64,000 nucleotides of DNA from NCBI GenBank assembly GCA_900128565.1, contig LT635910.1:1-64000 (forward strand), read 5' to 3'. The notes beneath the pieces were generated by a model, which did no database searches, was not told the origin of the DNA, and was given only the letters and a program-made list of their open reading frames with translations. Shown piece by piece: positions 1 through 46,187 of this stretch. The translations under genes were made by a program, and so were the position numbers. Positions within the stretch are counted from its first letter, which is position 1; each line of letters begins with the position of its first letter. The DNA is from Stramenopiles sp. TOSAG23-6 (taxonomy: Eukaryota).

Positions 1-69
1 AAAGAGAAAAAAAAATTCATAAATAAAAAAAAAAAAATTCAATTTCAAATTTAAAAAAAAAAAACATAC
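1..69 (-). other. Intron, 5' part only (donor GTATGTTTT at 69)
   Basis: Minus strand reads ttt ct|GTATGTTTTTTTT followed by T-rich sequence and an in-frame stop. Confidence 0.7.
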
Positions 70-2772: not shown

Positions 2773-3077
2773 CACTTTATTTTTGTTAGGTACGAAATTT
2801 CGTACGAAAAAAAAACATTTAGATAAAACATTGAAAAAAAATAAAATTATACCATGAACTTGATGTTGATATTGAACAATAGGAACAATATACATACATT
2901 GAGAGAGAGAAAGAGAGTGATAGAAGATCATCCATCTTTATAAACAGAATATAACCATATATTTTTCAATTTTTAATCATTGTTTCATCAAAAATTGTTC
3001 ACTATTATTTTTATTCAACACAACTCAGGAAAAACTGAGAGAAACGATTTTTTGTGCCAAAAGCTTCTTGAACAACT

Positions 3078-7396: not shown

Positions 7397-7525
7397 TTCC
7401 ATTTTTGAAAATCTCAAATTTTTCTCAAATCGAACTCTGACTCCTCCCTGAAAAAAATCGATTTCTTCTGCTGCAGATTTATTTACGTATTTTTAATAAG
7501 TCCCGTAATTGATTAATAAAGTTCG

Positions 7526-13464: not shown

Positions 13465-15508
13465 CTACACTTTTGTTGTAAAATTAGACGGAAATGCGCC
13501 TTTATATCGTTCTAACTGAGTATTTCGTGCATTTTCTGAGAAGAGCTGTAAAATATCAGTCACAGATACATTCAAACCTTCGGAAGCTTTAGTTATATTC
13601 ACTCCGATCCACCATCCCTCGTCTGTGCCAGAGGTAGAAACTATTGCAATTTGATCTCCACGTGAAAAAGACAATTCATCACTGTGAACTGCCTCATATT
13701 CAAATTTGGCTGTTCTCAAATTATAGACAGGATTTTCTGTACAATACCCACTCATAGAAGTATCAGTCAAAGGTTTCATTGGTGATATTGGAGCTGTTTT
13801 CATAGCGCTATCAAACACATCTAACCCACTCATTGAATTCATTAAATCTGGAATATCTGGTGTATTATTAGGGTTAGGGTTAATATCTGGAGTATTTCGT
13901 CTCTTTTTGTTGACCAAACTTTCATTTTGAGTATTTTGAGTATTTTGATTATTTAGAGTATTTTGAGTATGTGGGTGTGGGGGGGAAGATCTATTATTTC
14001 CGTGATGATGTCCATATATTGAGAAAAAATATGTTTACAATTTGAAATTTGTTAGGTATAGAATTATAGATGTAAGACATACAAAAACAAAATTTGATAT
14101 TGAAAAGTACATGATGCCTTTTATGATCTGCGGGAGGCGGTGGGGGTGGTTTCTTTTTATGTTTCACTGGAATAGCAGGACGCGGTAGCACAGGTTTTAA
14201 CAATTGTGATGGGGGTGATGGAGGAAGTGATTTCTTATCATGATTATTATTTATATTTCTTTTGTATTGGTTGATTTGTTGAGGATTTTTTTTGTTTTGG
14301 TTGTTTTGTTGAGAATTTAAGTCACTCAATGAATGTTCTACATTTTTTTTCCCACCAGAGCTTGATGTATAACTACCATTTCTACTGTGTTTTGAATTAC
14401 TTTTTACGTTACTATATGCTGTAGAGGTTTCATGGAATGTTGGCATTTCAGAAGCTTGAATATCTGAAAAATTCTTCATTGTACCATGAGTGGAAATAGA
14501 CTGTATTTGTGGTATGTGCATTGCCTTACAGCTTGATGCCATACTACCAACTGTAAAATATCCATGACGTTGTTCCCATCCACTTGCTCTTGCTATATCG
14601 TGAATGGTTGTGTTATCTAAACTACCTGATTCAACACCAGCAGCTTTTTCGCATTGACCTGGGCCAAATTGAAGTTTGTGTTTATTTTCGTATAAAACGG
14701 AACCAGATAAACGTCTCAATTTTATCATGTGTAATGAATTGGGAGGTACAGTACAAGCACAATGTCTACCAAAACGTTGTCTTCCACTAGAAATATGATT
14801 TCTAATTGACGTGATAGCTTGTAGAGTGTTGCTCAATAATATAGGTGCATTTCTATCAACGGCTCTCATTTCCTCATAAAATCGATCTCGTACTGTTTTA
14901 GTTTTCGTCTTTAATGAGCTTATCTTACTTAATTTTATCTGATAGAGTTCCTTATCAGATGCAGTCTTTAGGTGGGATGGATCGTACTTTGGAGTATTCA
15001 AAAGTTCATATTTTTGAGCTGCCAAGTCGACCATTAGCTGTCTGAAATCTGAAGCACAATTACGAACCTTTGGGGCATGTCTCAACCGTTTACGTACAGG
15101 GCCTAATACAGCATCTTCAAAAAATACTTTAACAGGATCCATAATAGCATGGGAAGCAATCATCTGAGTTTCAATAAATTGTTCTAGATCTGACTGTGAA
15201 TATCGAAGTTGTGTTGAAGGTGCACGATCACCGTCAATAGCATCTTCTCGACAAAATGGTTTCTTCAATAAAGGATATAGTTGCACTAATCGTTCAGTAA
15301 CCTTTGATTCAGCTTGTTCAGCTTCCTGAATTTTAACCCAGTAGTCTTCTAGCGAAGAGTGTAATAATTCAATCTCGCGAACGAATTCTTCGTATCTGTG
15401 TGAGTCTTCCTCAAACTCTACATCCACAGTTTTTTCAGTCACCCCAATCTTTTCACGCAACTTTTGTTTCATAGCGCGACGCCCGTCACTTGTAAACATT
15501 TTAAACAT
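13465..15508 (-). CDS. BAR domain, Pro-rich linker and SH3 protein; exons 15508-14111, 14013-13465; about 648 aa
   Basis: N-terminal QKLREKIGVTEKTVDVEFEE is BAR-like. SH3 reads AKFEYEAVHSDELSFSRGD...GWWIG...GAFPSNF. Confidence 0.8.
14014..14110 (-). other. Intron GT-AT, 97 nt, phase 0
   Basis: cat cat|GTACTTTT...TACCTAAC...TTTTTCTC AATATAT|gga cat cat cac. There is no AG inside the intron. Confidence 0.75.
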
Positions 15509-23765: not shown

Positions 23766-26700
23766 TTATACCCAAGAAGCCCAGCCATGATACATAAAAG
23801 CATTTTTTTCAGGATCTTTTGCTTCATTTATAAGCCTAGCGACATGCCCAGTGATGCCTAGAGTATCGCCATTTTGCTCTTCTTGACCCAAAAGTTTTTG
23901 TTTGACTCTTTTTAAAACTCTCCTAGACATCAAATTTGAAACGTGATTTGTTTTCTTATTAGATGTTGTTTCGATATTTGTGTCTGTTACTTTTAATTCT
24001 GGTTGTGGAGATACAGCAATACTCTTCGCTATAATATTTGAATTATGAGGATTATGAGCAATACTTAAAGACATAGTATGCGAACTCTGAGTCTGTTGAA
24101 TTGTATGGCAATCGTCTGGTGTCTGATCATGTTGTAATCGTAATGCTTCTGGTCTTGTCCGTGCCCATTTATACAATAGATTGTGAATAAATATTTCATA
24201 CATTTGAAATTCGTTAGGTACAAAACCAAAACATTGGATTTTTTTTGGAAAAAAAAGAATTAAAATTCATGATGAAAACGTACAAGGATCATGAATAAAT
24301 ACTTCTAAAATGGTTAATATAATATCTCTATTTTTAGCATCCCGGAGAACACGAAGTGACTCTTCACAACATCTTCTAAATGTTCCTTCCACACCAGTTA
24401 CACCCATGCCATCAATTATATCTCTTGTTAAACGAAAAGGAACAATTTCAGGTGTTGGTAATTCAAGTCCCTGTTCAAATACAATACCAAAATCTATATG
24501 TAAAACTTCTGCGGTGGAATTATCAATTAAAATATTCTGTGTGTGACGATCACCGATACCTAAGATATGACCTACCATACTAGTTGATGCTACAGATCTA
24601 GTGTACGTCATACGTTTAGCATACCACATACCTGTAATGTGAATATATATTTCAACCATTTGAAATTCATTAGATATATATTCCTACAATTGAATAATTT
24701 GAACAATACATTTAAAAAATACATTTAAACAATACATTTAAAATAAAAAATGTACATACTCAAAAATAAAATATAGGTATGGAATTTTCTAGACAACAAT
24801 TAAATAAATTCAAAATTCAATGAATAATTAATACGTACAAGGAAGGGGAAAGTTTTCTAAAAAGTAATGATGCAACACAGGTTGAAAATGTGCACAAATT
24901 TCATTAAATGTTTGAATTTTTAATTTTCTCTTTTTTGGATCAATTGAAGAATATTTTTTATGACATTTGGCATATGTCCAATCTGATGGATTCAATCTAT
25001 TGTGAGCACTATCGACATTTCGCCAAAGATAATCTGCTAAAGTTGCTGTATTCTCAACCCATTCTATGACACCACTATTAGGTGATAGAGGTACTACACG
25101 ATATGTCCGAATACGTAACTCTCTCGTACGTGAATTTGGATGTAAACAAAGCAATTCATTAACTACACCGAACACTTGTTGCATAATCGCATCTCCCTTT
25201 AAATCATCTTCTTTAACTAATTGTTTATAACGATGACCATCTGATCCAATGGCTATAACAACTTTTGGTTTATGAATTCCACTTGGTCCTAATACAACAT
25301 TCTCTTCGAAACCAATTATTCGTGGAACATTAGAATAATCACCAGATTGTCTAACATTTAAAGGAGCAGTAAATACTACAGGATTGGACTGATTCTGTGA
25401 AGAAAGTCGAAGATTTTTCCAACCATTTTTAAATTTTTTCACAACTCCAGGTCGAACAACTCTTTCAGTATGACGATGTACAGACAGAGCTAAATCCATA
25501 TATGTATTTGTAAGAACTTTAACCATAGTTACAGTCTCTCCTAAATCATTACGTCGAAGTCGGTCTAATAAATATTTTGCTGCATTCACTTTTTCAGGTT
25601 TCACACCTTCAAATGTTCTTTTCAATTCATCCGTAACTTTTCCACCTCGCGTAAGGGCTAATAATACAGGTAGAGTATGATGGGGGTGATGTACTGCACA
25701 TCGATATACTAAGGTCTGTAATGATTTCTGAAAACGAGAATTAATATTTTCATAATCATCTTTTGTTGATATAGTATCAGTATGTTGCATCTCCAATCTT
25801 GAAGCTAATTGATAAATTAATGGTACAAACCTATAACTTGGAACATCATTCGCAATAGCATCAAATTCAGCAGCTACTGAAGTCAAAGCATTTACACGTT
25901 TTACTCTTTCACTATGATTTTCTATTGTATTATTTTCATTCATTTCTTCCTCACAACGTGACTCAAAAGTAAACCACATATTACACACACGTGACACAAC
26001 TGCTAAATCATATTGATCAGTTTCAGAATGTTGTAAGCATAGTCGATATTGTTGTAAAGTTTCCTTCATGTAACTCCAAAGTGAAACTTTATCAGCAATT
26101 TGCGATTTAGCCAAGGTTTTTAAATTCCTTTTCAATTCACGAACATATATGCATTGTGAAAAAATATTTTACATTTGAAATTCGTTATTTTTTGTAACAT
26201 AACTACAATTGAAATCATATAGGAATATGAACGAAAACAAATATAAATTTGAAATGAATGTAAAGTTTTTTTTTGGTATGAAATTTTGTACCTAACGATT
26301 AAAAAAAAAGGATCAAAACGTACTTTGCTATTTCTGCATTTCGTTTTGTATGTGCAAGTTTACTTTGCTTTTGCTTCTTTTGACTTTTTTTTTGTGTCTT
26401 TAGAAGCGTTAATTCACGAGTTGCTTGTAAAGAAATATCTTTCATAATTAGTTCACAACGCGCTAATTCTTTTAATTGTTTTGTGTACGTCTCCTGCCAA
26501 TCTTGCCATTCTGGAGAATGAACTTGTACATCAATCTTTTGATATAACTTATCTAAATAATCTGCGAGTCTAAAATGGACATTTCCCAATAGACTTTGAC
26601 AATTTGTTCTATTATAATAATCCAAATTATTAAAATTATCTATATTATACTCTTCTGAGTCAAAGTTCGTTTTCACATTTTCTAATAATTCAACTGCCCG

Positions 26701-29700
26701 GCCAAGATAATCATCTTTTATAATTTGAGAACTCACGCGACTTGTTGCTGCTAACCACATTCCTGTAGTCGAAAGAACATCAATTAAAAAGAGATTTCCT
26801 GTTTTAGTTGAGGTGCGCGATAGATTCATTAATTTTATTAAACCTTGTGCAATACTTATCGCGCGTCTTTTATCGTTCATATCCCAAGAACATTTAGCTT
26901 CCAGCATTAACCATTTCATTCGTAAGTTTTTAGAAATACATTTTGATGTATCTTCAGATGTAGTCACTACTGATCGAGCACGTCGAAGGTAATTCATTGC
27001 CAAATGAGGAAATCCAGCCTTACGAGCCAAAAAGGCTGCATTACTTAGGTGTCGCTGTAGTAAATCAAAACCTGCATCACCAAACGTTCTAAGGAGAACT
27101 TCTCTTACACCAATTAAAGGCTGGAGAAGTTCAAAAACATCCACTCCAATTTGTTTATTTTTCATTTCCCAGTTTTGAACTAGTTTACTTAAATTTGTAC
27201 TTAATTTCGTACCTAAAGAATTTTGAATTTGTTGGGTACCACATTCCTCCATTAATTTCTTTACAGCATTAATTTCATAGACACATTGTAACTGTGACAT
27301 TGCAGAATATACACATTTTTTATCTTCAACTGAAGCACGACCATTTATCATATTTGATCCATGAACAGCATTGAAACTTTTTATAAGAAAGTTTTCAGCT
27401 TTTTTTATTGATATCGCATACATATCATCATTACCTGTCGCTACAGACCGCAATACATGAAAGAGACACTGATGCAAGCCCCAATCTGATACATTAGAAT
27501 TTCGAAAGTCTTTTACTATTGTTTGTTCCGATTTATATTTTTGAGTATTTTTTGTATTTTCAGTTGTATTTTTAGGGTTAGGGTTTATCATTTCATCATT
27601 TTTATAATCATTTGAAATCCATAAATTAGAAGGATCATTTCGCCAATGAGAACACAAATACGCTGCTTCAAAATGAATTTCAATTAATTCTTTCGATGTA
27701 CGTGTGTCTACTTGGCGTGCATATGAATCGAGGTATAAACCAATTGTATGATATAAACTTTGACATTTCATTGTTTTAATTAGAGATAAGTATCCGTTGG
27801 ATCCGTTGGAACAATTATCTATACTATTATTTGTTGCATGAGTACTTCTGGAATACATATCTCTACCACGTTGTTGTAGCATTGTATCAAATATTGATAA
27901 ACTGTGAGATTGATTCGTTTTAATTCCAGATGTTACATCGCCACATACTCCAGCTATACCATCAGGATCATTTAAGCCTCTATACGATTCTTCTAATAAA
28001 CGTTTATAAATAGGCAAATTCTGATTATCTTCATATACACATTCTAATCTAGAAAAGTGAATATCAATATTTGAATCATCATCAAAATGAAAAATTGAAG
28101 AATTACCAAAACTTTTGTTTTGTAATAATTGTTTCGATTCTGGTAAGTCATGCCATAATTCAACATAAAATAATGCAGTCAAATACAATTTACAACGTAA
28201 TGATGCTTTTGCAATGAGTAAAGGATCTAAGGACAATGAATACAAGTATTGTGAAAAAATATTTTTTTTAGTAAAAAAAAATGTTAGGTGCAATATTTTG
28301 TATGAAAAAAAGTGTAGGTAAAAAATCCAATTTTGAAAAACGTACAATTTTCGTGAAATTCTACGACGTTTTTGTTTTTGTTTTCTTCTATCATTTTTAG
28401 AATTTTGAATTGATAATTGATGAGCAGCGACAGAGTGTTGATGAAGTACTTGTATAGTAGATAGAATAAGTCGAGCAGCTTGAGTTGGCACAGAAATATC
28501 TTCAAGCAAGTTTGTGACCCATAAAGATAAATCATTAATTATCTCTGGATTATTCAACATGTTTAAGACACATAATGGAAATGCGACAGATGCAAAATCT
28601 GCTTTGAGTCGCGACAAACCTGCCGCAGCTTTTAAAAATGGATCCATAACAAAATGACTTGATTTCGCTAAATAAGTTACTCTACATATCCATGTTTCAT
28701 AAGACTCTCCACTTTGAATAGTCCACGAATGCTGCAACATTCGATAATAACTTTTATATTCGTGTTTGTTTTCAGTATTTTTTAAATTTCCTGTGTCACA
28801 AGTAAACTGATTCTTATCATGTTTAAAATGAATAAAAGGGAGTAAATGTTGTTTTGTTAAATCATCTAAAAAATTCATGGCGATTTTCCCACTGTCCGTA
28901 GAAAGCATACCACCGATAGCATACGCTGCTGTGCTAATTACATTTGGATCTGGATCGACTAAACAGGCCTCAGCACTACGAAGTAATTCAGCTTTTGCTT
29001 GAATTAATAAATATTCTTCTCCTAAAGTCTTAATAGTATTACTATTCTTTTCATTTTTGTTTGATGAAAAATTATTGATAGTAGTACAACCTACCAAAGA
29101 GATAATACTTGGATTTACTGTACCAATACATCCTAAACAGCGTGCTGCTAATGATTGCAAAATATATGACTGATCAGGGGAAGTAAATGAAAGTAAAGCG
29201 CGTACAAGGGTATCCATATCAGAAGATATATTATTCTGTGATTTTTGCGATTTTTGAGCTTTCTGTGATAATAAATAAACTAAAGCAGCTGAATGATTTT
29301 CTAAAGTAGATAATAAAGTTTGTAAAGGAAAAATCGCATTTGACCCGTGAAACGATTTTGAATGATCCAAAAACGTTCGCAAAGTTCTTTGAAGAGTTTC
29401 AACTTGACATAATTTTGTATTTGATGAATTATTTAGTGTAGACTGAGAGACCTTCTCATGAATAACAATAGAATTAACGCTTTTACTAGACGATGATGAT
29501 TCTTTAGTGTAGTCTTCATTAGCACTTTTACTAGACGATGATGATTCATTACTATGTTCTTCATTCATTTTTACTATGTACCGTAAATCATCTACTAAAG
29601 ACTTAATTTTATCCATATCAGTAGAATGTAATACCACATCCACATTTGTTGTTTTCTTTTTATTACTTGTATCAATAGTATTTAATTCGAAACAAATACT

Positions 29701-32700
29701 AAATGCGGCAATGAGCTCAGGAAATCGCATTAAAAAGAAATCAATACGTTTTAGTAATAATAGATGTTTTCTACTCAAGGATGAATTGTTTTTGTTTTTA
29801 CTGTAGCTATCTTTCAAATCATTGATTCCAGAACGGTCTAATAAGAGTTGTACTATAGTACAGCACACAAGACAATGACGTTGTTTGTACGTACGTAGAA
29901 TATGTAGTATAATATGTACAATCATACGAATTGTCGCAGGCTCTACGGAGATACTTCCAAGTAAATCGATACAAAGTTCAAATGATTGTAGTAATCGATT
30001 AAGAATATAAACATTATCACATTCATGAATGTTTTTGTTCATCAGTAAAAGAACTTTCTCAGTATTTGCACGTTTTAATAAATCTTCTGGGGTTTGTTTA
30101 GATTTATGTCTACTAGCAAAGTGAACAATTGCTTTCCGGACACTTTTGATATTTACTAACGCAAGCGTACCTGATTTTTCTAATGCAGCGACAGAAAATA
30201 ATCTATTGATTAACCCCAATGTTTGTTTTGGAGTACACAAGCCATTCATCATTTTAGATACTGAACCGTATATATTGACTAACCATTTCTCTGCTTGTGT
30301 CGCCAATTTATGATCTGTTGGAAGTTTGGTGAAATAAAGAGGTAGAAATGAACCGACTATATCACCTAAATTTGCATCAATAAATTGGCAAATTGCAGAT
30401 TTCAGTATATTTGAATCACTTTGAATAGAAATATTTTTCATATTAATTGATCCTTGTAAATGCATTGCACTTACTAAAAGTTTTATACGCTCCGCGTTTG
30501 AATTTCGTACAATTAAAACTGATAATACTACAGGTAATGCTCCACAATGCTCTGATAAAAAATTGTTCCAACTACTCGTTCCCATTAATGATATTGGGAA
30601 CGATTCTATAGATGCATACTCTTCAATCCAACGAAATAAAATATATTCGAGATATTCTTGTAGATATTCCTGAGTATTTTGAAATCCCAAAGAAGTAGCA
30701 ACACGTGAGAGGATACATGAAGTACTACACTCAATTTCTGGAATACAATAAAATGTACACAACTTATATAACGAATCTCGTCGGTGTTCAAGTACTTTAC
30801 TTCTTTTAGCGACTTCACCAAGTGTTAATAACCCGGTAATACATTTATTGTTTTGATTCATATCGTCATTAGATGACTCATCTTTCTTAGTTTTGATTCT
30901 TGGCATTATACATTCAATGGATTGATCTTTTACTAACACAGAAAACGACTCAACTTCAGTTAATAAAGGTATTACGCTAGATGCAACATGACGCACGGAA
31001 TATTCATTATCTTGCAATAATTTACACGAAATGACTAAAAGCAATTCACCAAACTCACCAGGGGCAATATAAAACCAAGGTATAAGTGTAATTAACCACA
31101 ATCGACGAACTATCGAGTTACGCCAACTTTTTTTATCTTTACCCACAAATTTTAATAAAGCTTCCACATTAGCTAAAATATTATAATTATTTTGATCACT
31201 GGATGAAGTAACAAAAGAAATAGTAGTCGTATTTGAGGAATATAACATCATACCAATATGATATAGTAAACAAAGCAAACGAGACTGGATTTCTGGATGG
31301 CCATGATATTCAGACATAACTAAACGAAATATTTCTAAAATGTCATTTAATCCAAATCTACGTAGATTTTTTTTAGTACAATGATAATGAATGATTAAAT
31401 CACATGCACAACCAATACAAGTCAATGCTATCACTGGGTTTGCAATGAGTTTGGGATTTTTTAATATTTGGCGTATTTGTTGTATTACATTTTTCACTTT
31501 TAAAATTTTTAAATCTTGAATATTTTTTGATTTACTTTTACTTGATTGAGTTTCTTCATCTGACGAATAAATACATGTCATTATTGTGTTACATTGCAGC
31601 ATCAAACAAGTACACATACAAAGTTCAATAATATTATTTGACCCATTGATGACTTGAAGCATGTTTGTTCCCGAATGAGTGACTTGACTACAATACACAA
31701 CCGAACAAGACGCTAGAAGGTCTAATGAAAATAATTCATCTACCTTTAACATTCTTTTTGTTCTATTATTATATTCATTTTCAACTCTATTTTTTCCATT
31801 ATAATTTTCTGTATCAATATCATCCTCATCACTATCGAAGCCACCGCTGCAACTTCTTTTTCCAGATAAATTCATTTCAAAAGACTGATATGATGTAGAT
31901 TGTGTTTGTTGCATTGTTTTCATACACAAATCTATATGCTGTGTTAACCATTTTAATATACAGTTTACATAATCTTTATTCTTGTACACTAGACTACTGC
32001 TACATTTTTCAGTATCCAAAGAATTTGAATTATGATCAACATCGTTATTGACAAACATTCTAGACGATAAATATATTATGGTAGAAGGATCCATAGTGAA
32101 TGATTCATCATACTTTGTTACATTTTGATTATTTGATGTATCACAAAATTTTCCCAAACAAATGGTCATAAAACGTTTTACTCTAGCAATCAATTTGAGA
32201 GTATTTTTCAATGCCGTTTCACATTGAGAACGTTTTAACGAATTGACCAATGCATTTAAAACCTTTTTCATTGCACTTGTTGAAGAAACAACAAAAGCTG
32301 TAATTCGACAAAATGTTTTCATACTAAACTTCTTACCTAAATCCTTTTTTACATTATTCTTATCAATGTCCATTGATTCTTTCTTATCTGTTGAAGAGTT
32401 TTCTACATATTCCTCATAATATTGTTGAAGTTCTATAAATGATGCATTTACAGTATCAATAACCATTGATACAAGCACACGTTGTTGTTCTATTGTAACT
32501 AAATTCATACTTACAAACGTTGGAACATTTGGACAATTACCTAAAGGATCAGCATTTGGCAAATTCGAAATTGAATCTGTACCTAATTTCGTACCTAACG
32601 AATTTCTAATTTGTTGAGAGTCATCTACTGTAGTGTCATATTCAAACATATGATATAATGGATTAGTACTAAATAACACGTTCTCAGCATTTGAAATCCA

Positions 32701-35289
32701 CTTTTTCATGCATACATCAACAGTTTTAATTTCGGGGAGATTTTCATAGTAATTTGAATTGTTCAATTCTGTTAATGATTTTTGAACTTTTGTAGATGGA
32801 ATGATGAAATAACCTTTCAAACCACCTACTCGAAAGGCATCTAATGTGCATTTATTCCATACATCACTATATAGTGATTTTGATATGAGTTTTTCTATAT
32901 TTGTATTTTCAGTATTTCTTTTTTTTTGAGTATTTTGGTTACAACTGGGACATACTAATGAAATTATATCAGCTATAAAGAATTGTAATCTCTCATGCAC
33001 TTCAACATCAGATTGAATACACTCTTTAATACTAAGATGTGTATCAAAAGTAGTTATCATTTGGTTTTTTATCACTGTATTAAACCACTGTAAAATCTCA
33101 TATAAAATACATTCTCTTTGTGAATTCGGATTAGAATTTTTACGATTGTGAGTTGATCCAATTGTTATACTAGTATTTCCCATACCATATAATTCAGCAA
33201 CATTTAGAAAAGCAGAGGTTATCCCAGTAAATAAAAAACTTTTACTATATCGTGTTCTTTGCGTAATTCCAGAATTACCAGAATTTAATAGTAATATATT
33301 CCAAATATTATTCTGAGTTCTAGATATAAAATGATTTGAAAATATACTATTATTTAAATGTAAAAGTTCACATATGATTTTCACACATAATGAAATGATG
33401 CCTGTTGCATTAGAAGTCTTTGATATCTGAAGTTTTCCTATACATGAACAATATATTTGTTGCCAAGAATTAATGATTGAACACATCACTTTTTTTTTTG
33501 TACGTTTTTTTCCACAAAAGGATGAATTACTTGTGTTATTTATATCAAATGTAATATTTTGTTTTAGTTTTACTTGACATAAGGCATAGATACAACGAAG
33601 TATCCAAAATGTTTCCATTGCAGTTGACTTTTCAGTATCTATCGCAACAAAACGAGAACAGAGAATGGTGATAACATTTTCATATCTTTTTGTAAAAATA
33701 TTTGAAAACATTTCAGGAAAACGAGAAATAAAGTATGTAAGTATTCTTAATGTTGTTATACAATCAATATTACTCGTGGTTGCATCATGTACAGTATCAA
33801 ATTGTAATGTATGTATCAGTTTTTCCAGAGGAGATATTTTTAGTATTGTCTTCATTTTTTTTTTGTTTTCTTGACTCTCTTCAACAGAATATGATCTTTT
33901 TCTTTTATTTGAAATTGAATCTGTAACAAATCCAGACGTTTCCGTACCAAACGAAGTTCGAATTTGCTGAAAACCACCTTCAGTGTTTATGTTCTCTACA
34001 TTTTCAATATTACTTTCTATACGTATTTCTCTTTGGTTTATATTTTCCAAAAACAAATGATGACAATGATATATTAATTCACTAGCTAACATTATTATAA
34101 TACTTTCATTGCGTGGTAAATTATAAATTCGAGTACCTATTGATAATGACTTTGATCGGAGAGAACGTTTCATTGTAATACCTAAAATATCTCCATTACA
34201 TTTGACATTCTGGATTTGCTTACCCAATACAATATGTTCATATAAACGTATTAATAATGAACTTCTTATATTTTTGTTATTTTTGTTGATATGAATTATT
34301 GGATCGTTCCAATGCAATCCACCACAAGTAGCAGGAGCCTTTGAAATACAAACTTGTATTCTTGAATTACGTAAATGAAGTAAAAATAACATAGTAATAC
34401 ATTGTTTACTCCCACTGTGCTTTGGTAAATTAGGCCAAACCCGGAGACAAAAATTGAGAATACCATAGGAATATCTTCGATATGATTGAATAGATTCAAT
34501 AGGGAATCGCTGAAGTACGATACAAATACAATTTATAACTTCTGTGACAGTTGCATTATCATTATGATTACGATTATTAAGCCACGAAGTAACTGTAGCT
34601 AAGACAATTGGTAAATATTTTACAACTACTTTAGAATTTAGAAAATTGCTCAGTAGTAAACAGACAATACGAAAATGTTTCACATCGGAAGAACAAAAGT
34701 GCTTATCCCGGATAAAGCTAAGAAAAGAATGCATCAAATTTCGAAATACACGAGGAGATAATTTACCACAATATTGACATTGTAGTAAAAGTACACGTAG
34801 TATATTGCATGTACTATTATGTAGCTTCATATTAGTCTCTTCCGCATGCAAAATGCGTTCACAATTTTCAAAAATTTCACCAACAACTGAAAGTAAAGCA
34901 GAACCAGGGAGAAAATCTTCAGCTTTTCGAATAACTTCACCAAGTAAATCTTGATCATACTGGCCGCCACGTGAGCTCACAGGTTTCTTTCGGCCTTTTG
35001 ACTCAGCAACTAAATAGTCTAAAATATCTCCGACGAGATCGGCCCACGAAACTCGAATAGACTCTCCTGTCCTTGAATTTTCATTATCAATCAAACGATT
35101 AGCCTCTTTTTGTTTGACTGAATTACGGTTTAGTAAATTCACATACCGTCCATTATTTGCACGAATATAAGAAAATATAAGTTTTTTTCCCTCTTTGCGA
35201 TCAGTTGCTTTCGACGACACAAGCTTAATAATAGCAGAATTAAGAGCGTTCAGTAGTCGATTATTCTCGCGGCGCAAAGCATCCCCCAT
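23766..35289 (-). CDS. ATM: ATM/Tel1 PIKK kinase; exons 35289-28346, 28243-26324, 26148-24839, 24631-24284, 24175-23766; about 3643 aa
   Basis: TAN-like N-terminus ([10 protein letters not shown]), FAT region, kinase motifs [34 protein letters not shown], and [12 protein letters not shown]...MYHGWASWV. Confidence 0.92.
24176..24283 (-). other. Intron GT-AT, 108 nt, phase 1
   Basis: gat cct t|GTACGTTTT...TACCTAAC...TTCAC AATCTAT|tg tat aaa tgg restores HDPLYKW. The intron holds an in-frame stop and no AG. Confidence 0.88.
24632..24838 (-). other. Intron GT-AG, 207 nt, phase 1
   Basis: cct t|GTACGTAT...TTCAC ATTACAG|gt atg tgg gives FPLPCMWYAKR. Confidence 0.9.
26149..26323 (-). other. Intron GT-AT, 175 nt, phase 2
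   Basis: gca aa|GTACGTTTT...TTTTTCAC AATGCAT|a tat gtt cgt gives AEIAKYVRELK. Confidence 0.8.
28244..28345 (-). other. Probable stop-free in-frame intron GT-TT, 102 nt
   Basis: aaa tt|GTACGTTTT...CACCTAAC...TTTTTCAC AATACTT|g tat. It reads through as a Phe-rich 34-aa insert. Confidence 0.7.
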
Positions 35290-35765
35290 TGTACCGAGTG
35301 AACAAAAGCACTCGCAAAAATAAACTTGTTATTGTATCAATAATACAACATGAGTAAATTGAATATGGTTGGTTGGCTTGGGGTGGCAAGAGTGTTAATA
35401 ATATCAGAAAACTTGGCCGAACTCTCGCTTCTCCTCGCTTCGTTCATCAAAATGACCGAGCTGGGTTGAAAAAAAATCGAAATTATTTCGATTTCGTGTT
35501 TCAAAAATTATTTCTTTTTTTTGAAATCAAAAAAATCATCGTCATCGACTCATCATCGTGTGCCTCTATTTTTTACTCTTCATATTATATAATCTTCCTG
35601 CACATTGAAATTTCACCATTGCAGAATTACACCTCTTAGATATTTGCCATCTGCATCGGATTATATAATTAAGTCCAAATATTACTTTGGATACTGGCCG
35701 GCTCAATCATATTTGGAGAAGAGTTTCTGTGAGAGGTACGAATCTAGTGTTCACTAAGTTCTCTA

Positions 35766-35984
35766 ATGTCTGGACTAGTCAAAAATAGTTCAAACCTAGC
35801 CGCTACACCATCAAGTGTTATGAATGAAATTTCACACTTTACTCGATGGGCAGAATCGGGGAAAGAATCAAAAGAGATTTACCAGCGAACAAAACAAGAC
35901 TTATCTGTAGAAATCCTCGATGACCTCCGGAAAGAAATTGCTGAACTTGCAAAGGACCACTGGATGTTTGTTGAAGGTTCATAG
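35766..35984 (+). CDS. Small protein, 72 aa, SAMBA/APC16-like C-terminus
   Basis: ATG-initiated ORF divergent from ATM, ending LDDLRKEIAELAKDHWMFVEG. Similarity is from recall only. Confidence 0.6.
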   Translation: MSGLVKNSSNLAATPSSVMNEISHFTRWAESGKESKEIYQRTKQDLSVEILDDLRKEIAELAKDHWMFVEGS

Positions 35985-36509
35985 TAGTAGAAATATGATA
36001 GAAACCTTTAGAATATATGTAGTTATATAATTGATTTATGAGGATTCTGCGGAATTATGAAGATTAAATTTTTATTCTTTATATTTTTCTTTTTAGCTAA
36101 AAGCAGCTATATCATTCGTAACATTTGAAAGAGTTTTAGAATATTTTTTTAAATAACAAATGCAATGCCACACAATTATTTAAATTATACAAACAAGACT
36201 ATCAGACAATGATATTTACATGATATAGATTGAATTTTCATAAACGTTTTGCTTCATGTCTCTTCTTTCCTGTGTAATATTGTGTAAGTACACGAAATAA
36301 ATATTTTTTCATTTTAACGGACGTTCTTCAACCGTTACTTATTATACAGCTAGTAGATAAGGTACCCGTTTGAAAGCACTTTTATACTGAACAATAAAAT
36401 ACGGATAATGTTGGTGCGTAATAGTGATTCTCGCTAAGCCTAGTTGCATCTATGCTATATATCCTCCGCATTTAATTGATAAAACATCTGCTAGAGTATT
36501 AGACATAAA

Positions 36510-39458
36510 ATGGCGGCAATTTCATTCATTCATAGAAAATTCACGAAGATGAAAAAGGAAGAGTCGAAAATTGACCATACTCCCGGGTGGTCTCGGTTAA
36601 AGCACGCACACCACGCAAAGCGACATATCAAGAATTTAGTTATCACAAGACCTATTGCAGCAAGAGTTATTCAAAAGACATTTAAAATATATCTTAAAAA
36701 GAAGCAAGGACTTTTGGCACCGGATACAACTAAAACATCAACGTTGACTACAAGTGACGATAAACTTAATATTGCTAGTAGTTCCACTAAAGAAGTAGAT
36801 GATTGTCTAAACACTCCAGACAAAAAAACAGAAAGTAAATCTGTTGCCGGTATACCAACAGAATATCTTGAGAGAATATTCAATAAACTAGATCATGATA
36901 AAGATGGTTTCTTATCAAAGAAGGAAGTAGGCAAGTTTGCAAAAGAGTTCCACGAAAAAATAACTTCATTCTTTGGTGGAAATTCTCTCGCAGCTGGTTT
37001 CGAGGAAATGGATAGAACTAAAAGAGGAAAGGTTTCTTTTGATGATGTCATTTGGTGGCATCGCTTACACCACCCAGAAACTGAAGAAGAAGTTGAATCT
37101 CAAATACATTTTCTCTTTAATGAGATTGACACAAAGGGCACTAAAACTTTAAATAAAGCTGAGGTTGGCAAGTTGGCTGCAAAGATGGGAGACCGACTGA
37201 AAGGATTTTTCGGATTTAGCCACAAGAAGTTAGATTTAGCATTTGTTCAAATGTCACAAATTGGAAGTTCGGTTGTAACATTTGAAGAATTTTTAGCATG
37301 GCACAAATTCAAACATCCTAAGTTGTATAAAAAGTTAGCTTCGCATAATAAAGATATACAAGAAAGCCATGATAAAGATCAAACTAATACACAGACACAT
37401 ACATTAGTTACAGGCGATCTTCCACCACAGGATGTTGTGATGAAAACGCGGACATCAATTGTAGGTAAAACATCATTTCATCCCCCCAAGACTATGAATG
37501 AAATAATATTAAAAACAAAAATTCTCTTTGATGAGGTGGATAAAAAAAAATGTGGAAGACTAACTATAAGTCAAATGAATGATCTGGCTAAAAAACTTGG
37601 ATATCATCTAGAAAGATATTTTGGTTTTTCTAAGAAGAAGCTTCTAGCAGCATTCGCCGATATGTCACTAGAAGGATCTAGTACAGTTACTTTTGAGGAA
37701 TTTATACTTTGGCACAAAATGTATCACCCAGAAGTATATGCTGAGGTTCCAGATTTACATGGTACAAAACGCATTACTGGTATCAATAGTTTGATGTCGA
37801 AATGCTCCGTAGCAGGTATACCAACGGAGCATTTTCGATTGATTTTTACTGAACTTGACACAGACAATGATGGTTTACTTTCCGAAAAGGAAGTCGGCAA
37901 GTTTGCAAAAGAGTTCCACGAAAAAATAACTTCATTCTTTGGTGGAAATTCTCTTAAAGATGGCTTCAGAGAAATGGATAGAAAACAAATGGGTCGTGTT
38001 TCGTTTAATGATTTAATTTCATGGCATCGAAAGCATCACCCAGAAACAGAAGATGAAATTACTTCACAAGTACAGTTTCTTTTTAACCACGTTGACCAAG
38101 AGAAATCTGGATTTCTGAATAAAAAAGAAGTAGGAAAACTTGCTTCTAAAATGGGTTATCGATTGAAAGGATTCTTTGGAATAAACCATCAAAAATTAGA
38201 CATTGCATTTTCAGAAATGGTAAAACCTGGAGAATCACGTGTCACATTTGATCAGTTTATAAAATGGCATAAAATACACCACCCTGAAGTTTATCGAATG
38301 GTTAAAAAACATATACCAGTCAATTTAAAGGCTCGTCAATGTGAAGAAGATAGACCAATAAAAAAATCATGTGAAGAAGATAGACCAATAAAAACATCGT
38401 GTGAAGAAGATAGACCAATAAAAACATCCACTACAGCCAATGTCAAAGTAGACGTAGACACATGGACTGCAACAACTTGTGCACATCTTGAAGATGCACT
38501 ATCAGCCAATACATCAAGGAAACACATTCATCATGATGTGAATACGCTGCTCAACGATCTCCCAGCTGATTTGAGTGCAAGCCTTCAAGTTGCCATGTCT
38601 ATGAAAAATAAAGCAATTAGTAGGTTGAACGTAGAAATGGAAAATAAAGAGATTCTTTCAGGAGCACTGAAGTATTTGCGCAAAAATAATCTTATTCCCC
38701 CAAAGAGTTCTCATATTACTGCCGACACTTCAAAAGGAGAATTTCCAGAGTTACCAGGAGTACACTCAATTTTTACCATAGCCCTGAGGAAAATACATGA
38801 CTGTTTGTCATCAGTATCTGTACTTTCTGAGCTTTCTGATTGTGATACCGAAAATACTGGTTTACTTGATACGTCTACTGTTTTCCAAAAGCTTGACAAG
38901 CATTTGAGATTTCCTCCTCTTGAAAAAGCAGCCGTATTCCTATTGATAGATCCTAATGGTGAGGGCAAAGTTCCATATAAAGATTTACCAAATATAATAC
39001 CTCAAATCCCAAAGCCTGTGAAATGTAGTTCCTCCAATGAATATTTGCATGTAAATAAGAAAGTAGAAAATATAACTTCAAGTTCAGATAATATAGCAGG
39101 TAAAACCCCAATGAAATTATCACCAAAGAACATAGGAAGTGTTTCAGTGACACATGAAAATTTACCAGTGGAAGCCCCACCTAGGGAAATAGAAAATTTG
39201 CCATTAACATTTGAAAGGTTACCATTTAAAAAATCATTGAAATCATCACCTACAAAAATAGGACATGAAAAGTTACGATTGAAAAAATCATTGAAATCAT
39301 CACCTACAAAAATAGAGGATTTGCCATTAACATTTGAAAAGTTACCGTTGAAAAAATCATTGAAATCATCACCTACAAAAATAGAAGATTTATCAGTGGA
39401 ACTTGAAAAGTTAAAGAAAAATTTGCAAGTAAAATTGAAAGCGTTTCTTAGCGAATAA
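36510..39458 (+). CDS. Multi-EF-hand protein with IQ-like motif and internal duplications
   Basis: AARVIQKTFK; repeated EF pairs (DHDKDGFLSKKE, DTDNDGLLSEKE); KFAKEFHEKITSFFGGNSL occurs twice. Confidence 0.88.
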   Translation: MAAISFIHRKFTKMKKEESKIDHTPGWSRLKHAHHAKRHIKNLVITRPIAARVIQKTFKIYLKKKQGLLAPDTTKTSTLTTSDDKLNIASSSTKEVDDCLNTPDKKTESKSVAGIPTEYLERIFNKLDHDKDGFLSKKEVGKFAKEFHEKITSFFGGNSLAAGFEEMDRTKRGKVSFDDVIWWHRLHHPETEEEVESQIHFLFNEIDTKGTKTLNKAEVGKLAAKMGDRLKGFFGFSHKKLDLAFVQMSQIGSSVVTFEEFLAWHKFKHPKLYKKLASHNKDIQESHDKDQTNTQTHTLVTGDLPPQDVVMKTRTSIVGKTSFHPPKTMNEIILKTKILFDEVDKKKCGRLTISQMNDLAKKLGYHLERYFGFSKKKLLAAFADMSLEGSSTVTFEEFILWHKMYHPEVYAEVPDLHGTKRITGINSLMSKCSVAGIPTEHFRLIFTELDTDNDGLLSEKEVGKFAKEFHEKITSFFGGNSLKDGFREMDRKQMGRVSFNDLISWHRKHHPETEDEITSQVQFLFNHVDQEKSGFLNKKEVGKLASKMGYRLKGFFGINHQKLDIAFSEMVKPGESRVTFDQFIKWHKIHHPEVYRMVKKHIPVNLKARQCEEDRPIKKSCEEDRPIKTSCEEDRPIKTSTTANVKVDVDTWTATTCAHLEDALSANTSRKHIHHDVNTLLNDLPADLSASLQVAMSMKNKAISRLNVEMENKEILSGALKYLRKNNLIPPKSSHITADTSKGEFPELPGVHSIFTIALRKIHDCLSSVSVLSELSDCDTENTGLLDTSTVFQKLDKHLRFPPLEKAAVFLLIDPNGEGKVPYKDLPNIIPQIPKPVKCSSSNEYLHVNKKVENITSSSDNIAGKTPMKLSPKNIGSVSVTHENLPVEAPPREIENLPLTFERLPFKKSLKSSPTKIGHEKLRLKKSLKSSPTKIEDLPLTFEKLPLKKSLKSSPTKIEDLSVELEKLKKNLQVKLKAFLSE
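38340..38426 (+). repeat. Coding tandem repeat, 30 bp x3
   Basis: tgtgaagaagatagaccaataaaaa.atc. repeated (CEEDRPIK). Confidence 0.9.
39187..39395 (+). repeat. Coding repeat, three copies of KKSLKSSPTKI
   Basis: aaaaaatcattgaaatcatcacctacaaaaatag x3. Confidence 0.9.
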
Positions 39459-39720
39459 AACATTTGAAAAAAAATAAAAGTAACAATAACACAATATATA
39501 TGAGGAGAAAAAACAGTTCTCAAAAGTATTTTTATGTTTTTATTTATGTACAAAAAAATGTAGGAAACTACGTACCTAAATGACGTTAGTCAATGGTTCT
39601 GTATATTGTTTCATATTGTTTCATTCTAATAAAAATACACGATCAAACACTATAAACAATGTTTTTTACGTCATCTATCAGTCAATGTAAAGGCAACTCG
39701 AAATATAAATAATGAAAATA

Positions 39721-40917
39721 TTATATTCCATACTTAATGTCCATTAATGTTTGCAATATTACAATGAAGAGAATCATCAGACCGCCACTGCCTCCAAGAT
39801 GCAAAGCTTTAAAACCAAATCCAGGATAAACTCCAAGAATTCCTGATTTAGATACTAAATCACCAAAGACTTTGAAATGTGAAGCAAAATGTTGAACAAA
39901 TTTACCACCACATGATTTAGATTCATCCGATTCTGAAGGTTCTTCGCGTATCATTTGACGTTGAACAACAGAACGAACAACATCAGGTGGAGTATTAAAA
40001 ACTGTTGCAAAGGAACCCGCAATGAAAGCAGAAATAAATTTAGCCAAGAAATAGAAGATTACGTGAGTTGCACCCATTAATCCAAACCATTGATTAAAAG
40101 GTTTACGGAAAAATCCAATCATCATGAAAAAGAGACCGGTCCAGATACCATTTCTCAACTGCATACCAAACCATCCAGAGTAAACACCAGCAAAACCATG
40201 TGTTTTGTACATGTGCTTTAACGCAGCAAAAACACTGTTTTTAAACTTATTTTCAGAGTCAATTTGAAGTGCAATTTTTGCAACTTCAAGTGGAGTTACA
40301 ATAAATATTTCAGGAAAAGTAGCCAACATACCGATTGGTCCTTTGATGTAGAAAGGAGTTGTAGCCATAGTTGTTCCGTTAATGTGTTTACAAAACAAAC
40401 CGAAAAAGAAAAATTTGGAGGCTCTCATCAAACTGGATTTAATAATCTCAGCAAGGGCTCCTTGCTTAACAAGACCTTTAAGTCCGTGTGTTTTAATGAA
40501 ATCTTTGATAGACATTGGGTTTTCCTGTCCAGCAGAAGCCATTTTCAGCGCTCTTATGACGTCAACAGGGTACATGAATAAAGCAGTCAACGCAGCTGCA
40601 ATACAAAGCATTAAGATGCGCCAAAGCTCAGAATCTCGTTTCTGATTTTTTGAAGGTTCATTTGGACTTGGTGCATTATGAAGTGATGTTCCTACGAGTG
40701 CGTATGGAAGAATCAATATGCTCAGCAGTAAGACACCAAGACACCCACCCACAAAATACTTTAACAAGGTTTTTCTGGATTCGTCAGCTTTTTCTTCTTC
40801 GGATTTTCCGACTTGAGAATTTCCACTGGTCTTTTTGATTGCAGTAAAGTTACTGGAGCTTGATATCTCATCCTTTTGAGATTCAATGTCTTGTTTGTTT
40901 AAGAGTTCTTGTTTCAT
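39721..40917 (-). CDS. Mitochondrial carrier (SLC25) with N-terminal extension
   Basis: Three PxD/ExxR/K signatures: PVDVIR, PLEVAK, PPDVVR. Confidence 0.9.
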   Translation of the reverse strand: MKQELLNKQDIESQKDEISSSSNFTAIKKTSGNSQVGKSEEEKADESRKTLLKYFVGGCLGVLLLSILILPYALVGTSLHNAPSPNEPSKNQKRDSELWRILMLCIAAALTALFMYPVDVIRALKMASAGQENPMSIKDFIKTHGLKGLVKQGALAEIIKSSLMRASKFFFFGLFCKHINGTTMATTPFYIKGPIGMLATFPEIFIVTPLEVAKIALQIDSENKFKNSVFAALKHMYKTHGFAGVYSGWFGMQLRNGIWTGLFFMMIGFFRKPFNQWFGLMGATHVIFYFLAKFISAFIAGSFATVFNTPPDVVRSVVQRQMIREEPSESDESKSCGGKFVQHFASHFKVFGDLVSKSGILGVYPGFGFKALHLGGSGGLMILFIVILQTLMDIKYGI

Positions 40918-41244
40918 TTTGGAAGAAATTAGACCGTTGTAGTGTGCTACAGATGTGTTCGAAGTGCGTTCGAAGTTGTCCCGACCTCTTCACTTGAAAC
41001 TACTCGATGCACACTGACTTTATTCTGGAGAAAAACGCATTTTCGTACTTAAAAATCCGTACCAAAAAAGTGGAGAATTCAAAATTTCAAACACGTGTTA
41101 CATTGATGATGTCTGTGAGTCTGTCACGTCGACTGGTCACTCGCACTGGCCAAGTGATCCAGATCCACTGCTGGCCAACGAAAATTGGAAGGTTGATGAA
41201 AAAAAGTTATCTCAAGATTATACAATAAGTGCAACAATCCCAAT

Positions 41245-42881
41245 ATGTTTCCTGTACATACATGTAGACGCTTCTTTTCTTCACCAGCTGTCCGTGAAAG
41301 GAGCGTTGATTTTGGCGATATTGTACGTGCAAGTTCATACTTTCGCGAACAAGCTTTCATTGGTGGTACATGGGTTGATAGTACTTCGGGTAACAGCTTT
41401 GATGTAGTCGACCCTGCTTCTGATGAATATATCGGAAGTGTACCGGATATGAATGCTAATGATACTGATATTGCCATTCGTGCTGCTGAACATGCTCTAC
41501 CCTCCTGGTCTAGAAAACTTGCGAAAGAACGTTCTGCAATTCTTGAAAAGTGGCATGATCTTATGCTACAAAACAAGGATGAGCTGGCTCAGATTATGAC
41601 ACTGGAATCTGGTAAACCCCTTGCTGAATCCATTGGTGAAGTTGTTTATGGTGCATCTTTTATAAAATGGTTTGCGGAGGAAGCAAAAAGAGCTTATGGT
41701 GATATCATACCTGAACCTTTATCTGGTCGAAAACTATTGACAGTGAAAGAACCAGTGGGAGTATGTGCTTTTGTGACACCATGGAACTTTCCTATTGCAA
41801 TGATCACACGAAAAGCTGCCCCAGCACTTGCTGCTGGATGTGCCTTTGTTGTAAAACCCTCAGAGGAGACCCCTTTTAGTGCTTTAGCTTGTGCAGCAAT
41901 TGCAGAGGAAGCAGGTTTGCCCCCTGGATTATTTAATATAGTAACATCATCGAGAAAAAATACACCTGAAGTAGGTGAAGTTCTTACAAATAGTAAAATA
42001 GTGAAAAAATTTTCATTTACTGGTTCAACAAAAACAGGAAAAATATTGGCTAAGCAATGTGCTAATACTGTTAAACGCGTATCCTTGGAGTTAGGTGGAA
42101 ATGCACCATTTATAGTATTTGATGATGCTGATATAGATGCAGCTATTCAAGGCGTTATGTACGTTTTCATCATGAATTTGAATCTTTTTTTTTTTTCGTA
42201 CTACATTTCGTACCTAACAATTTTTTTTTTACTAAAACGAAAAATATTTTTTCACCGCACATGGATTCTAAATTTAGAAATACTGGACAAACTTGTGTTT
42301 GTGCCAATCGTATTTATGTACATGATACTATATATGATGAATTTGCTGATTTGTTAACTCAAAAAGTAAAGTCTATGCCTGTGGGTCATGGTGCTGTTAA
42401 GGGTGTATTATCAGGGCCTTTGATCAATAAGAGTGCTTTAGAAAAAGTTGAGGATCATGTAAGTAATGCTGTAAAGTTAGGTGCAAAAGTCTTAACTGGA
42501 GGTGATAAACATATTGCTGGTGATAACTTTTATATCCCTACTGTTCTCTCTGAAGTAAATCAAAATATGAAAATAGCAAATGAAGAAACATTTGGTCCTG
42601 TAGCTCCATTATTTCGCTTTTCTAATGAAGAAGAAGTTATAACTGCAGCTAATAATGTTGATTCTGGACTTGCAGCATATTTATATTCAAGAGATATTGG
42701 ACGAGTTTTTCGAGTTTCTCAAGCTTTAGAATATGGAATGGTTGGTGCAAATGCTGGTGTTATATCATCTGAAGTTGCTCCATTTGGAGGAGTGAAAGAA
42801 AGTGGTTTAGGTAGAGAAGGTGGAAACATTGGTATGGATGAATTTATGGAAGTGAAATATATTTGTTTAGGTGGGTTATAA
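41245..42881 (+). CDS. ALDH5A1: Succinate-semialdehyde dehydrogenase; exons 41245-42158, 42263-42881; 510 aa
   Basis: TPWNFPIAMITRK, FTGST, LELGGNAP, SKFRNTGQTCVCANR, EETFGP, PFGGVKESG. Confidence 0.95.
42159..42262 (+). other. Intron GT-AT, 104 nt, phase 2
   Basis: gtt at|GTACGTTTT...TACCTAAC...TTTTTCAC CGCACAT|g gat tct restores QGVMDSKFRNTGQ. There is no AG inside the intron. Confidence 0.9.
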
Positions 42882-43947: not shown

Positions 43948-44012
43948 ATAAAATTAAGTTTTGAATAATGGATAAATTGTTTCAGTTATTTATAAATCTT
44001 TATAACAAAAAA

Positions 44013-45631: not shown

Positions 45632-46187
45632 CTCAAGGCCTATAATCAATGTATTTCGTGATTTTTACGTCAAAATGGCCGAAAAACACATTTCTAGTGG
45701 ATTGAAGTGTGAATTTGCAATTGGAGAGTGATGGGGGCCTGGCCCCCACCTCGTACATGCATCAAACTCGAACTTTGTTCAAATATTTCATGGTGATTGA
45801 GGGGAAACTAGTTGTAATTTCTGGCGTGAATCTTTGAAGAAGTATTGTCAAAAAATATTTAAATTATTTTGTTAGGTACAACATTTACTACGAAAAAAAA
45901 TCTCGATCCGAAATCTCCGAATTTCAGAATTTGAGGCGGTATCGTTGATTACTTGCCCTTATACGCATTGTAACATTGTAAGGCTATATTTCAGGTGGTT
46001 GAATATGTCCAGTGATGCCATGAACCAATTGTGTTACCTTTATTAAAGAATTAAAGTACTATATGCAGTGTAGATTATGCACTATTTGACTACTATTGAA
46101 ATTTCGATTTTGGTACGGTTAGGTACAAAAAATGAAAAAAAATAAAAAACACGAAATGAGGCGGTATCGCTGATTATAGGCCTTGAG
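45632..46187. mobile_element. Putative non-autonomous element with 17-bp terminal inverted repeats
   Basis: CTCAAGGCCTATAATCA at 45632-45648 and TGATTATAGGCCTTGAG at 46171-46187, with subterminal ATTTCGTG/CACGAAAT. Non-coding. Confidence 0.6.

Follow-up and report, generated by a model that had tools for sequence, protein, structure and literature searches.

Introns of shared design and mostly non-AG 3' ends in a marine stramenopile contig: a possible introner-like family

The DNA analysed here, which we call the window, is a stretch of 64,000 nt from Stramenopiles sp. TOSAG23-6 (assembly GCA_900128565.1, contig LT635910.1, positions 1 to 64,000 of the forward strand). Several of its genes are interrupted by short introns that resemble one another from one unrelated gene to the next. 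The main finding is that all 10 complete introns in our set, nine in the window and one on a related metagenome contig, share one template, and that nine of these ten end in a dinucleotide other than AG. Judging from reading frames and protein alignments, we are confident that the introns are real and that most of their 3' ends lack AG. We put the chances at about even that they form an introner-like family whose members carry their own non-canonical splice signals. The first-pass annotation of this DNA had noticed the resemblance and had proposed either a mobile intron family or unusually long splicing signals. It was silent on the non-AG 3' ends, though its coordinates imply them.

A shared template, fixed geometry and non-AG 3' ends

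Complete introns were defined from motifs together with the flanking reading frames. Nine of them lie in the window (A, B, C, E, F, I, G, H and S), the tenth, L1, lies on contig L001, and an eleventh extends past the window edge. Three of the host genes had been named ATM, SSADH and BAR-SH3, and these names stand. The ATM product has PI3_PI4_kinase and FATC domains and its closest structures are ATM chains, the SSADH product has an Aldedh domain and its nearest matches are succinate-semialdehyde dehydrogenases, and both a BAR and an SH3 domain were matched in the third. The window introns are listed below. E values are those of a profile for which the eight short introns (A, B, C, E, F, H, S and L1) supplied the sequences; its 8 full-length matches (E 2.5e-16 to 1.8e-9) are there by construction.

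1..69, minus strand: edge intron; 5' part only, cut by the window edge; begins GTATGTTTT at 69, then T runs and GAATTT motifs
300..401, minus strand: intron A; 102 nt, GTATGT...TACCTAAC...TTCACATTACAT, phase 0, host protein unnamed, profile E 4.6e-10
549..658, minus strand: intron B; 110 nt, GTACGT...TACCTAAC...ATCACTCATACT, CT end demanded by the flanking frames, E 1.6e-10
2502..2598, plus strand: intron C; 97 nt, GTATGT...TTTCATACGAAATTTCATACCTAAC...TTCACAATACAT
14014..14110, minus strand: intron E, in the BAR-SH3 gene; 97 nt, GTACTT...TACCTAAC...TTCTCAATATAT
24176..24283, minus strand: intron F, in ATM, separating the kinase part from the FATC part; 108 nt, end CACAATCTAT
24632..24838, minus strand: intron I, in ATM; 207 nt, end TTCACATTACAG, the sole AG end among the window introns
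26149..26323, minus strand: intron G, in ATM; 175 nt, end TTCACAATGCAT
28244..28345, minus strand: intron H, in ATM; 102 nt, end TTCACAATACTT, E 2.8e-12
42159..42262, plus strand: intron S, in SSADH; 104 nt, end CACCGCACAT, boundaries set by homology (..GVM|DSKFRN.., the bar marking the junction)

One template is common to all 10 complete introns. Its parts come in the order GTAYGTTTT(CATCATGAATTT), a T run, (TTTCRTAC.AAATTTYR)TACCTAAC, a T-rich tail, and (A)ATATTTTTTCAC followed by 7 nt. Every intron starts with GT and nine of the ten start with GTAYGT. The first 9 nt of the 5' block are general, and in some copies the block is lengthened to GTACGTTTTCATCATGAATTT, with positions 10-21 identical in introns F and S. 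It is this pair for which 21 identical first bases had been reported, and the count is correct: GTACGTTTTCATCATGAATTT occurs exactly twice in the window, at 24263-24283 (minus strand) and 42159-42179 (plus strand), and none of 100 dinucleotide shuffles gave two or more occurrences. Self-BLAST of the window lengthens this match to 34/36 identical bases. A CTAAC-type branch motif is found in 9/10 introns, intron G having ATAAC, and the unit TTTCRTAC.AAATTTYR stands immediately 5' of TACCTAAC in about half of the copies. T-rich tails are present as well. Between the end of the branch motif and the 3' cut there are 35-44 nt, with a distance of exactly 37 nt in half of the introns (A, B, E, F and I), and the 3' end itself is exactly 7 nt past TTCAC. 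On the left side of both junctions the consensus is C[A/T]T|.

The other similarities noticed at the first pass also survive a count. A longer motif is indeed shared by several introns: in its 25-base degenerate form, TTTCRTACNAMATTTYRTACCTAAC, it has 4 exact matches and 8 with no more than 3 mismatches, against an expectation of 0.00, and GTACCTAAC has 9 matches in the window vs 0.23 expected. The lengths of the nine window introns do cluster at 97-110 nt (97, 97, 102, 102, 104, 108 and 110), with two longer introns of 175 and 207 nt. The longest, intron I, has the template in its 5' and 3' thirds and ~100 nt of extra sequence in between. Intron H keeps the frame and contains no stop codon, and the long ATM open reading frame (ORF) therefore runs straight through it.

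The 3' ends depart from the usual rule in nearly every case. Seven of the ten introns end in AT, one in TT (H), one in CT (B) and one in AG (I). In SSADH the translations of the two exons meet at the same residue of solved SSADH chains, and they align gap-free to P0122, a 68%-identical protein (..GVMDSKFRN..), with no residue gained or lost. Since the junction aligns to both, the length of intron S is 104 nt. The ATG repeat at its boundaries permits four registers (AT..AC, TG..CA, GT..AT and TA..TG), none of which is GT..AG, and there is not a single AG between the branch motif and the exon. The first downstream AG was considered as the SSADH 3' site and rejected, as it would delete the conserved MDSKFR residues. 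In ATM, splicing out intron F gives a product reading ..HDP-LYKW.., where P-L-Y-K-W is aligned to P-L-F-D-W of ATM chains, and this alignment of the joined product sets the intron's length to 108 nt. Moving the register by 2 nt yields the identical protein, so homology cannot separate the registers of intron F. Read from the predicted proteins, then, homology fixes a non-AG end for SSADH and is consistent with one for ATM intron F. We also tried an AT-AC reading, with boundaries shifted by 2 nt, as a general rule and rejected it, since it fits only those introns whose exon ends in AT.

A mechanical rule recovers all of the ends. It places the 3' end 7 nt past the first [TA]TC[AT]C after a branch-like motif, and this joins the longest upstream and downstream frames in 10/10 introns, where chance would succeed 1/3 of the time for each. 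The rule was formed after the frames of B and F had been seen, so only L1 checks it independently. From the branch motif to the 3' end, eight of the ten introns contain no internal AG; A and C contain one each. The internal AG of intron C lies 27 nt before the end and is likewise in frame, which makes the end of intron C less certain.

Contig L001 is the single match that a scan for the TTTCRTACNAMATTTYRTACCTAAC motif gave among JGI metagenome contigs, and the same scan gave 0 among viral contigs and 0 among prokaryote genome contigs. One match is too few for family statistics. Its L1 is a 104-nt template intron with an ACAT|GTATGT start and a CACAATACAT| end, as in intron C. The opposite strand of L001 holds a second intron, 128 nt long (409-536), to which the family profile gives no match. 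This intron has GTACGT, GTACCTAAT, TTCAC and an AG end, skips an earlier AG, and measures 37 nt from branch to end by our own count. It follows that the core signals exist outside the family and that AG ends are still used.

Seawater RNA runs contain exon pieces identical to the window, for example one of 227 nt with 0 differences. Four RNA runs were compared with positions 24101-44100; their contigs are ~150-520 nt long, and none bridges an intron here. The joints listed in RNA contigs are cross-matches between family copies, which have no bearing on splicing either way.

Template copying and splicing constraint

The scenario that we favour would work as follows. Each copy would bring a full signal set of its own: a GTAYGTTTT 5' site, often stretched to the 21-nt block, a CTAAC-type branch motif within (TTTCRTAC.AAATTTYR)TACCTAAC, and then a T-rich tract. 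The 3' cut would fall exactly 7 nt past TTCAC, at 35-44 nt from the branch motif, and usually after YAT and not YAG. A spliceosome whose 3' rule is relaxed or changed would remove the template introns from RNA, with each block in its putative role. The family itself would have originated by template copying, in the manner of introners, and would later have been altered by decay, insertions and exchange between copies. A bolder version of the idea, to which we give somewhat less than even chances, is that a widespread marine stramenopile group changed its 3' rule from YAG to mostly YAT, with the cut set by distance (some 37-44 nt past the branch motif and 7 nt past TTCAC), and that nearly all of its introns come from one self-contained introner.

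The likeness was measured on the eight short introns (of eleven). Their summed global alignment score stands at z 22.6 vs shuffles. The similarity extends past the short motifs in one part of the intron and not in the other. Once the 5' hexamer, the branch heptamer and the final 12 nt are taken out, and with 300 dinucleotide shuffles as the control, the stretch from the 5' site to the branch is more alike than expected (z 7.9, reached by 0/300 shuffles), and the stretch from the branch to TTCAC is not (z 1.4, 29/300).

Parts of the template also occur outside intron context:

2764..2816, minus strand: copy D; T run and perfect middle block, without the GTAYGT start and without the TTCAC end; E 6.6e-7
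27195..27229, plus strand: ATM antisense fragment 1; middle block and branch motif, inside the ATM ORF; E 0.009
32579..32613, plus strand: ATM antisense fragment 2; inside the ATM ORF; E 1.1e-4; RNA contigs with other flanks match
45842..45915, minus strand: copy J; middle block, branch motif and GACAATACTT end, without the GTAYGT start; E 1.8e-7

Copy D sits between two convergent genes, 13 nt past the stop of the plus-strand gene, and so lies outside any reading frame. Copy J lies upstream of the RNase PH (exosome) ORF and is either an intron of the 5' untranslated region (5'-UTR) or an intergenic copy. Intron G carries the middle block reversed, at 26266-26300, between T9 and A9 (E 8.5e-5). 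By self-BLAST the two ATM antisense fragments are identical to each other at 35/39 bases, the first of them spanning 27196-27234 in that match. Hundreds of contigs with unlike flanks bear the template blocks in two seawater RNA runs. In run X1 there are 265 contigs, 219 of them at 90-95% likeness, together with at least 144 loose ends, and bins other than those of the blocks have a depth of 0-4; summed RNA-contig depth is not copy number, and DNA carry-over is possible.

Two of these places have further features of their own. The peptide QQI[RQ]NSLGTKL[GS]T occurs twice in the ATM frame, at 27196-27234 and 32578-32616, coded antisense to the template fragments; it may be an exonised insertion that was duplicated afterwards. 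The divergent intergene between RNase PH and a UAA-transporter holds related partial template copies, J and K, at 45932-45951 and 46157-46176, which have in common a second kind of 5' part, AATCARCGATACCGCCTCA. The same region contains a 40-nt inverted repeat (46188-46227 vs 46394-46433), with several N bases at ~46261-46279.

Between a mobile family and long splicing signals there is no clean choice. Each has evidence in its favour, and probably both apply. Three classical introner hallmarks were looked for and not found: near-identical copies, terminal inverted repeats and target-site duplications. We favour copying because near-identical blocks in some introns are dispensable in others and because antisense and out-of-context fragments exist. 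The tight length range, the 3' placement of the ATM introns and the abundance of copies among environmental contigs argue for it as well. ATM carries four introns, all within the 3' third of the gene (the leftmost gene of the window has at least three). If intron loss mediated by reverse transcriptase removes 3' introns first, this placement fits gain better than retention.

The competing explanation that we take seriously, even as we lean against it, is an extended lineage-specific splicing code without mobility. The shared sequence would then reflect the convergent upkeep of binding sites for small nuclear RNA (snRNA) and proteins in the few introns that survive. Identical cores at fixed distances in all introns are what such a code predicts, and the L001 intron at 409-536, which is not of the family, has the same cores and the same 37-nt branch-to-end distance. 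Intron-poor protists and yeasts, with their strong, extended splice signals, provide a precedent. This explanation has trouble with the blocks that are missing from introns B, E and F and nearly identical among the other introns, with lengths that cluster within 14 nt, and with the antisense and intergenic fragments, which have no splicing role.

Several results weigh against copying, and some of them favour the splicing code directly. The core signals are present in every intron seen, so that much of the likeness could be due to constraint alone, and the stretch from branch to TTCAC is, as noted, no more alike than its shuffles. Pairwise identity is low, 42-66% with a mean of 55%, and 22 of 126 alignment columns are invariant; this is far under the near-identity expected for a recently active family. 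The likeness is modular and not tree-like. Intron S, for example, has a different nearest match in each block: F for the 5' part (0.84), L1 for the middle (0.82) and H for the 3' part (0.81). Similarity matrices of the three blocks do not correlate with one another (r 0.03-0.12, p 0.28-0.43). A target-site duplication (TSD) of fixed length is unsupported in the 10 introns. Terminal inverted repeats (TIRs) were not found in them, as only GTAY and RTAC (4 nt) can pair, and none of 35 ORF translations in the window matched a transposase or a reverse transcriptase. Nor does a conserved fold emerge: the RNAalifold consensus has 0 pairs, and two helices drawn by hand do no better than shuffles. For the helix of the intron ends 68.8% of cells are paired vs 68.4% in shuffles (360/500), and for the one joining the 5' site to CRTAC 92.5% vs 92.0% (331/500), with no covariation in either. 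Low mosaic identity and missing transposon hallmarks fit an old family reshaped by exchange, or they fit pure constraint.

The junction repeats deserve separate mention. Those reported at the first pass are present as written (ACAT at 2502, ATG in SSADH and BAR-SH3, TTGTA at 28345) but are not clearly intron-specific. The end of each of the 10 introns was compared with its own upstream exon end, against the exon ends of other introns, by permutation. The resulting p is 0.06 at 6 nt, 0.13-0.20 at 8-16 nt, and 0.02 only at 20-24 nt, the last because intron F is identical at 17/24. Most of the repeats are explained by C[A/T]T| standing left of both junctions, and boundary microhomology varies from 0 to 5 nt across introns. 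The strongest repeat between exon end and intron end is that of 24284-24307 vs 24176-24199 (minus strand), the 17/24 match just mentioned; both copies translate roughly as E-[IV]-F-I-H.

Three further explanations concern the machinery of removal. Introns of the U12 type have the 5' consensus [AG]TATCCTT and place their branch site 10-20 nt before the 3' end, and GT-AT is among their rare subtypes. We think it very unlikely that a derived minor (U12-like) spliceosome, tolerant of non-AG 3' ends, is at work here. It would accommodate the varying 3' terminal bases and the GT-AT ends, and ACCTAAC is one deletion from the U12 branch consensus. Against it, the 5' site reads GTAYGTTTT, there are 35-44 nt between the branch motif and the 3' end, and a T-rich tract is present. 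We give very little credence to a non-spliceosomal excision from RNA in which the intron ends pair and so guide the cut, a mechanism that has been proposed for the nonconventional introns of euglenids and the introners of Amoebophrya. The non-canonical 3' ends and short junction repeats are suggestive of it, and the initial GTAY could pair with the RTAC near the end, but the pairing tests given above speak against it, as do the invariant 5' GT and the classical spliceosomal signals GTAYGT and CTAAC. Hardly any weight goes to removal at the DNA level, like that of ciliate internal eliminated sequences, in which case these would not be introns. Short direct repeats at the boundaries and precise excision would suit it, but the invariant GT start comes with spliceosomal-type signals, there is no TA rule, the standard code gives ORFs of up to 3009 codons, and the blocks are abundant in contigs from RNA libraries, where DNA carry-over is possible.

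Known intron families and existing gene models

Trichomonas and Giardia introns have an extended 3' motif, and budding yeast introns have GTATGT and TACTAAC; these introns have AG ends and are not known to resemble one another between the signals. The present introns are like them in sitting in an intron-poor genome, in their near-invariant 5' and branch motifs and in a conserved block whose short distance to the 3' cut is fixed. They differ in their non-AG ends, in the duplication of a TTTCRTAC unit and in having a 5' block of 21 nt.

Families of introns whose borders are non-canonical have been described before, as the portions of PMC7789003 and PMC11282704 used here attest. In those portions of PMC11282704, the introner elements of Micromonas and Aureococcus and the introner-like elements of fungi are, like ours, many short look-alike introns in unrelated genes that bring their own splice signals and lie in sense orientation within genes, and the Micromonas and Aureococcus introners share the marine protist setting. 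The introners of all three have 3-nt TSDs, TIRs and canonical GT/GC-AG borders according to the same text, whereas the introns of our set have no detectable TSD or TIR, are 42-66% identical and have non-AG 3' ends in 9/10 cases. Amoebophrya, as described in the relevant part of PMC7789003, is also a marine protist with a non-GT-AG majority and repeated intron families; direct repeats span the boundaries (3-5 nt there), and standard gene finders fail. Its introns are described there as having no preferred terminal dinucleotides and as carrying 8-20-nt inverted repeats that form hairpins. Unlike these, the window introns have an invariant 5' GT, GTAYGT with CTAAC, a mostly YAT end at a fixed distance, and no supported hairpin.

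Two more comparisons come from the same portions of PMC11282704. Fritillaria borealis introns are given there as AG-AC and AG-AT and Polarella introners as GC-AG. In both, as may be the case here, a lineage-wide dinucleotide shift is linked to the spread of transposon-derived introns, and the exon end resembles the intron end, as it does here; the non-canonical end is the 5' one in Fritillaria but only the 3' one in the window introns. The nonconventional introns of euglenids have non-canonical borders and TSD-like junction repeats, as ours do, and are described in that text as having no polypyrimidine tract, widely varying lengths and pairing ends. The window introns have T-rich tracts and lengths within a tight range, and pairing of their ends is not supported. 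What sets the present introns apart is the invariant GT with classical 5' and branch motifs, the preferred YAT at a fixed distance and the lack of end pairing.

We found no report of such introns for marine stramenopile (MAST) lineages in the literature, whose supplements, being outside the search, may hold intron statistics. In the text available to a term search, the MAST genome papers PMC8163842 and PMC12614181 have 0 occurrences of 'intron', PMC5778133 has two, at least one of them methodological, and the 2026 preprint 10.64898/2026.04.17.719054 gives intronic fractions only. If RNA confirms what is proposed here, an abundant free-living ocean protist would have GT-AT as its main intron type and not as a rare exception. 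It would be a natural system for learning how the second step of splicing works without a 3' G, and a new lineage in which the spread of an intron family goes together with relaxed splice-site rules, a link drawn in the portions of PMC11282704 and PMC7789003 cited above. On the bolder version above, gene models of such genomes that are based on GT-AG would be wrong at most introns.

Two labelled coding sequences (CDSs) already illustrate the last point. The ORF for malate dehydrogenase (MDH) in the window is identical to the GSMAST32-labelled CDS P0001 over 322/322 aligned residues, where the next named matches are oomycete proteins at ~54%, and CDS P0121 is 99% identical to the window SSADH over aligned columns. 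Judged by this identity, P0001 and P0121 are from the same or a near-identical genome. We read the organism as a marine stramenopile, with the CDS label as the source of the group name. P0121, however, reads ..AAIQGV-INTGQTCV.. The gap corresponds to a cut from the true GT to the first downstream AG, and it deletes six conserved residues, so the annotation of this or a near-identical genome mishandled the SSADH intron. P0121 lacks three further coding stretches, four in all (SSADH, window 41200-42881), and P0001 lacks two, of 12 and 8 residues (window 7520-8626). These internal deletions look like false GT-AG introns carved from exons. Because the labelled CDSs show the deleted SSADH motif and the spurious MDH deletions, gene counts and functional inferences for such genomes may be biased.

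Host genes and other features of the window

The G+C content across the window is 28-40%. With the standard code it reads as tightly packed long ORFs, of up to 3009 codons, that encode ordinary eukaryotic proteins. From ORF translations and domain matches we count ~25-30 genes, the majority free of introns. A scan of the window with Rfam at the gathering score gave 0 matches, hence no snRNA gene, and 0 tRNAs were found in it.

A few further features were noticed. The coding part of the leftmost gene is preceded, at 1156-1200 on the minus strand, by a 45-nt stretch of the form GTACGT..CCCTAAC..ATCAC plus 7 nt, ending in a start-like ATG; it may be a 5'-UTR mini-intron or a chance match. A perfect 43-nt inverted repeat (19260-19302 vs 19456-19498) lies inside or beside a carbon-nitrogen hydrolase frame. 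A 987-codon EF-hand frame contains a 68-nt internal repeat (36921-36988 vs 37887-37954, 98.5% identity), and tandem repeats lie close to its 3' end (39187-39391). Finally, telomere-like CCCTAACCCTA(GG/AT) motifs occur at 10618-10630 (plus strand), 17927-17940 (plus strand) and 55135-55148 (minus strand), and also on L001 at ~2260-2330. These CCCTAACCCTA motifs sit in short intergenic stretches directly past gene ends, some of them adjoining GCCCGAGC, and they may be a terminator or boundary element.

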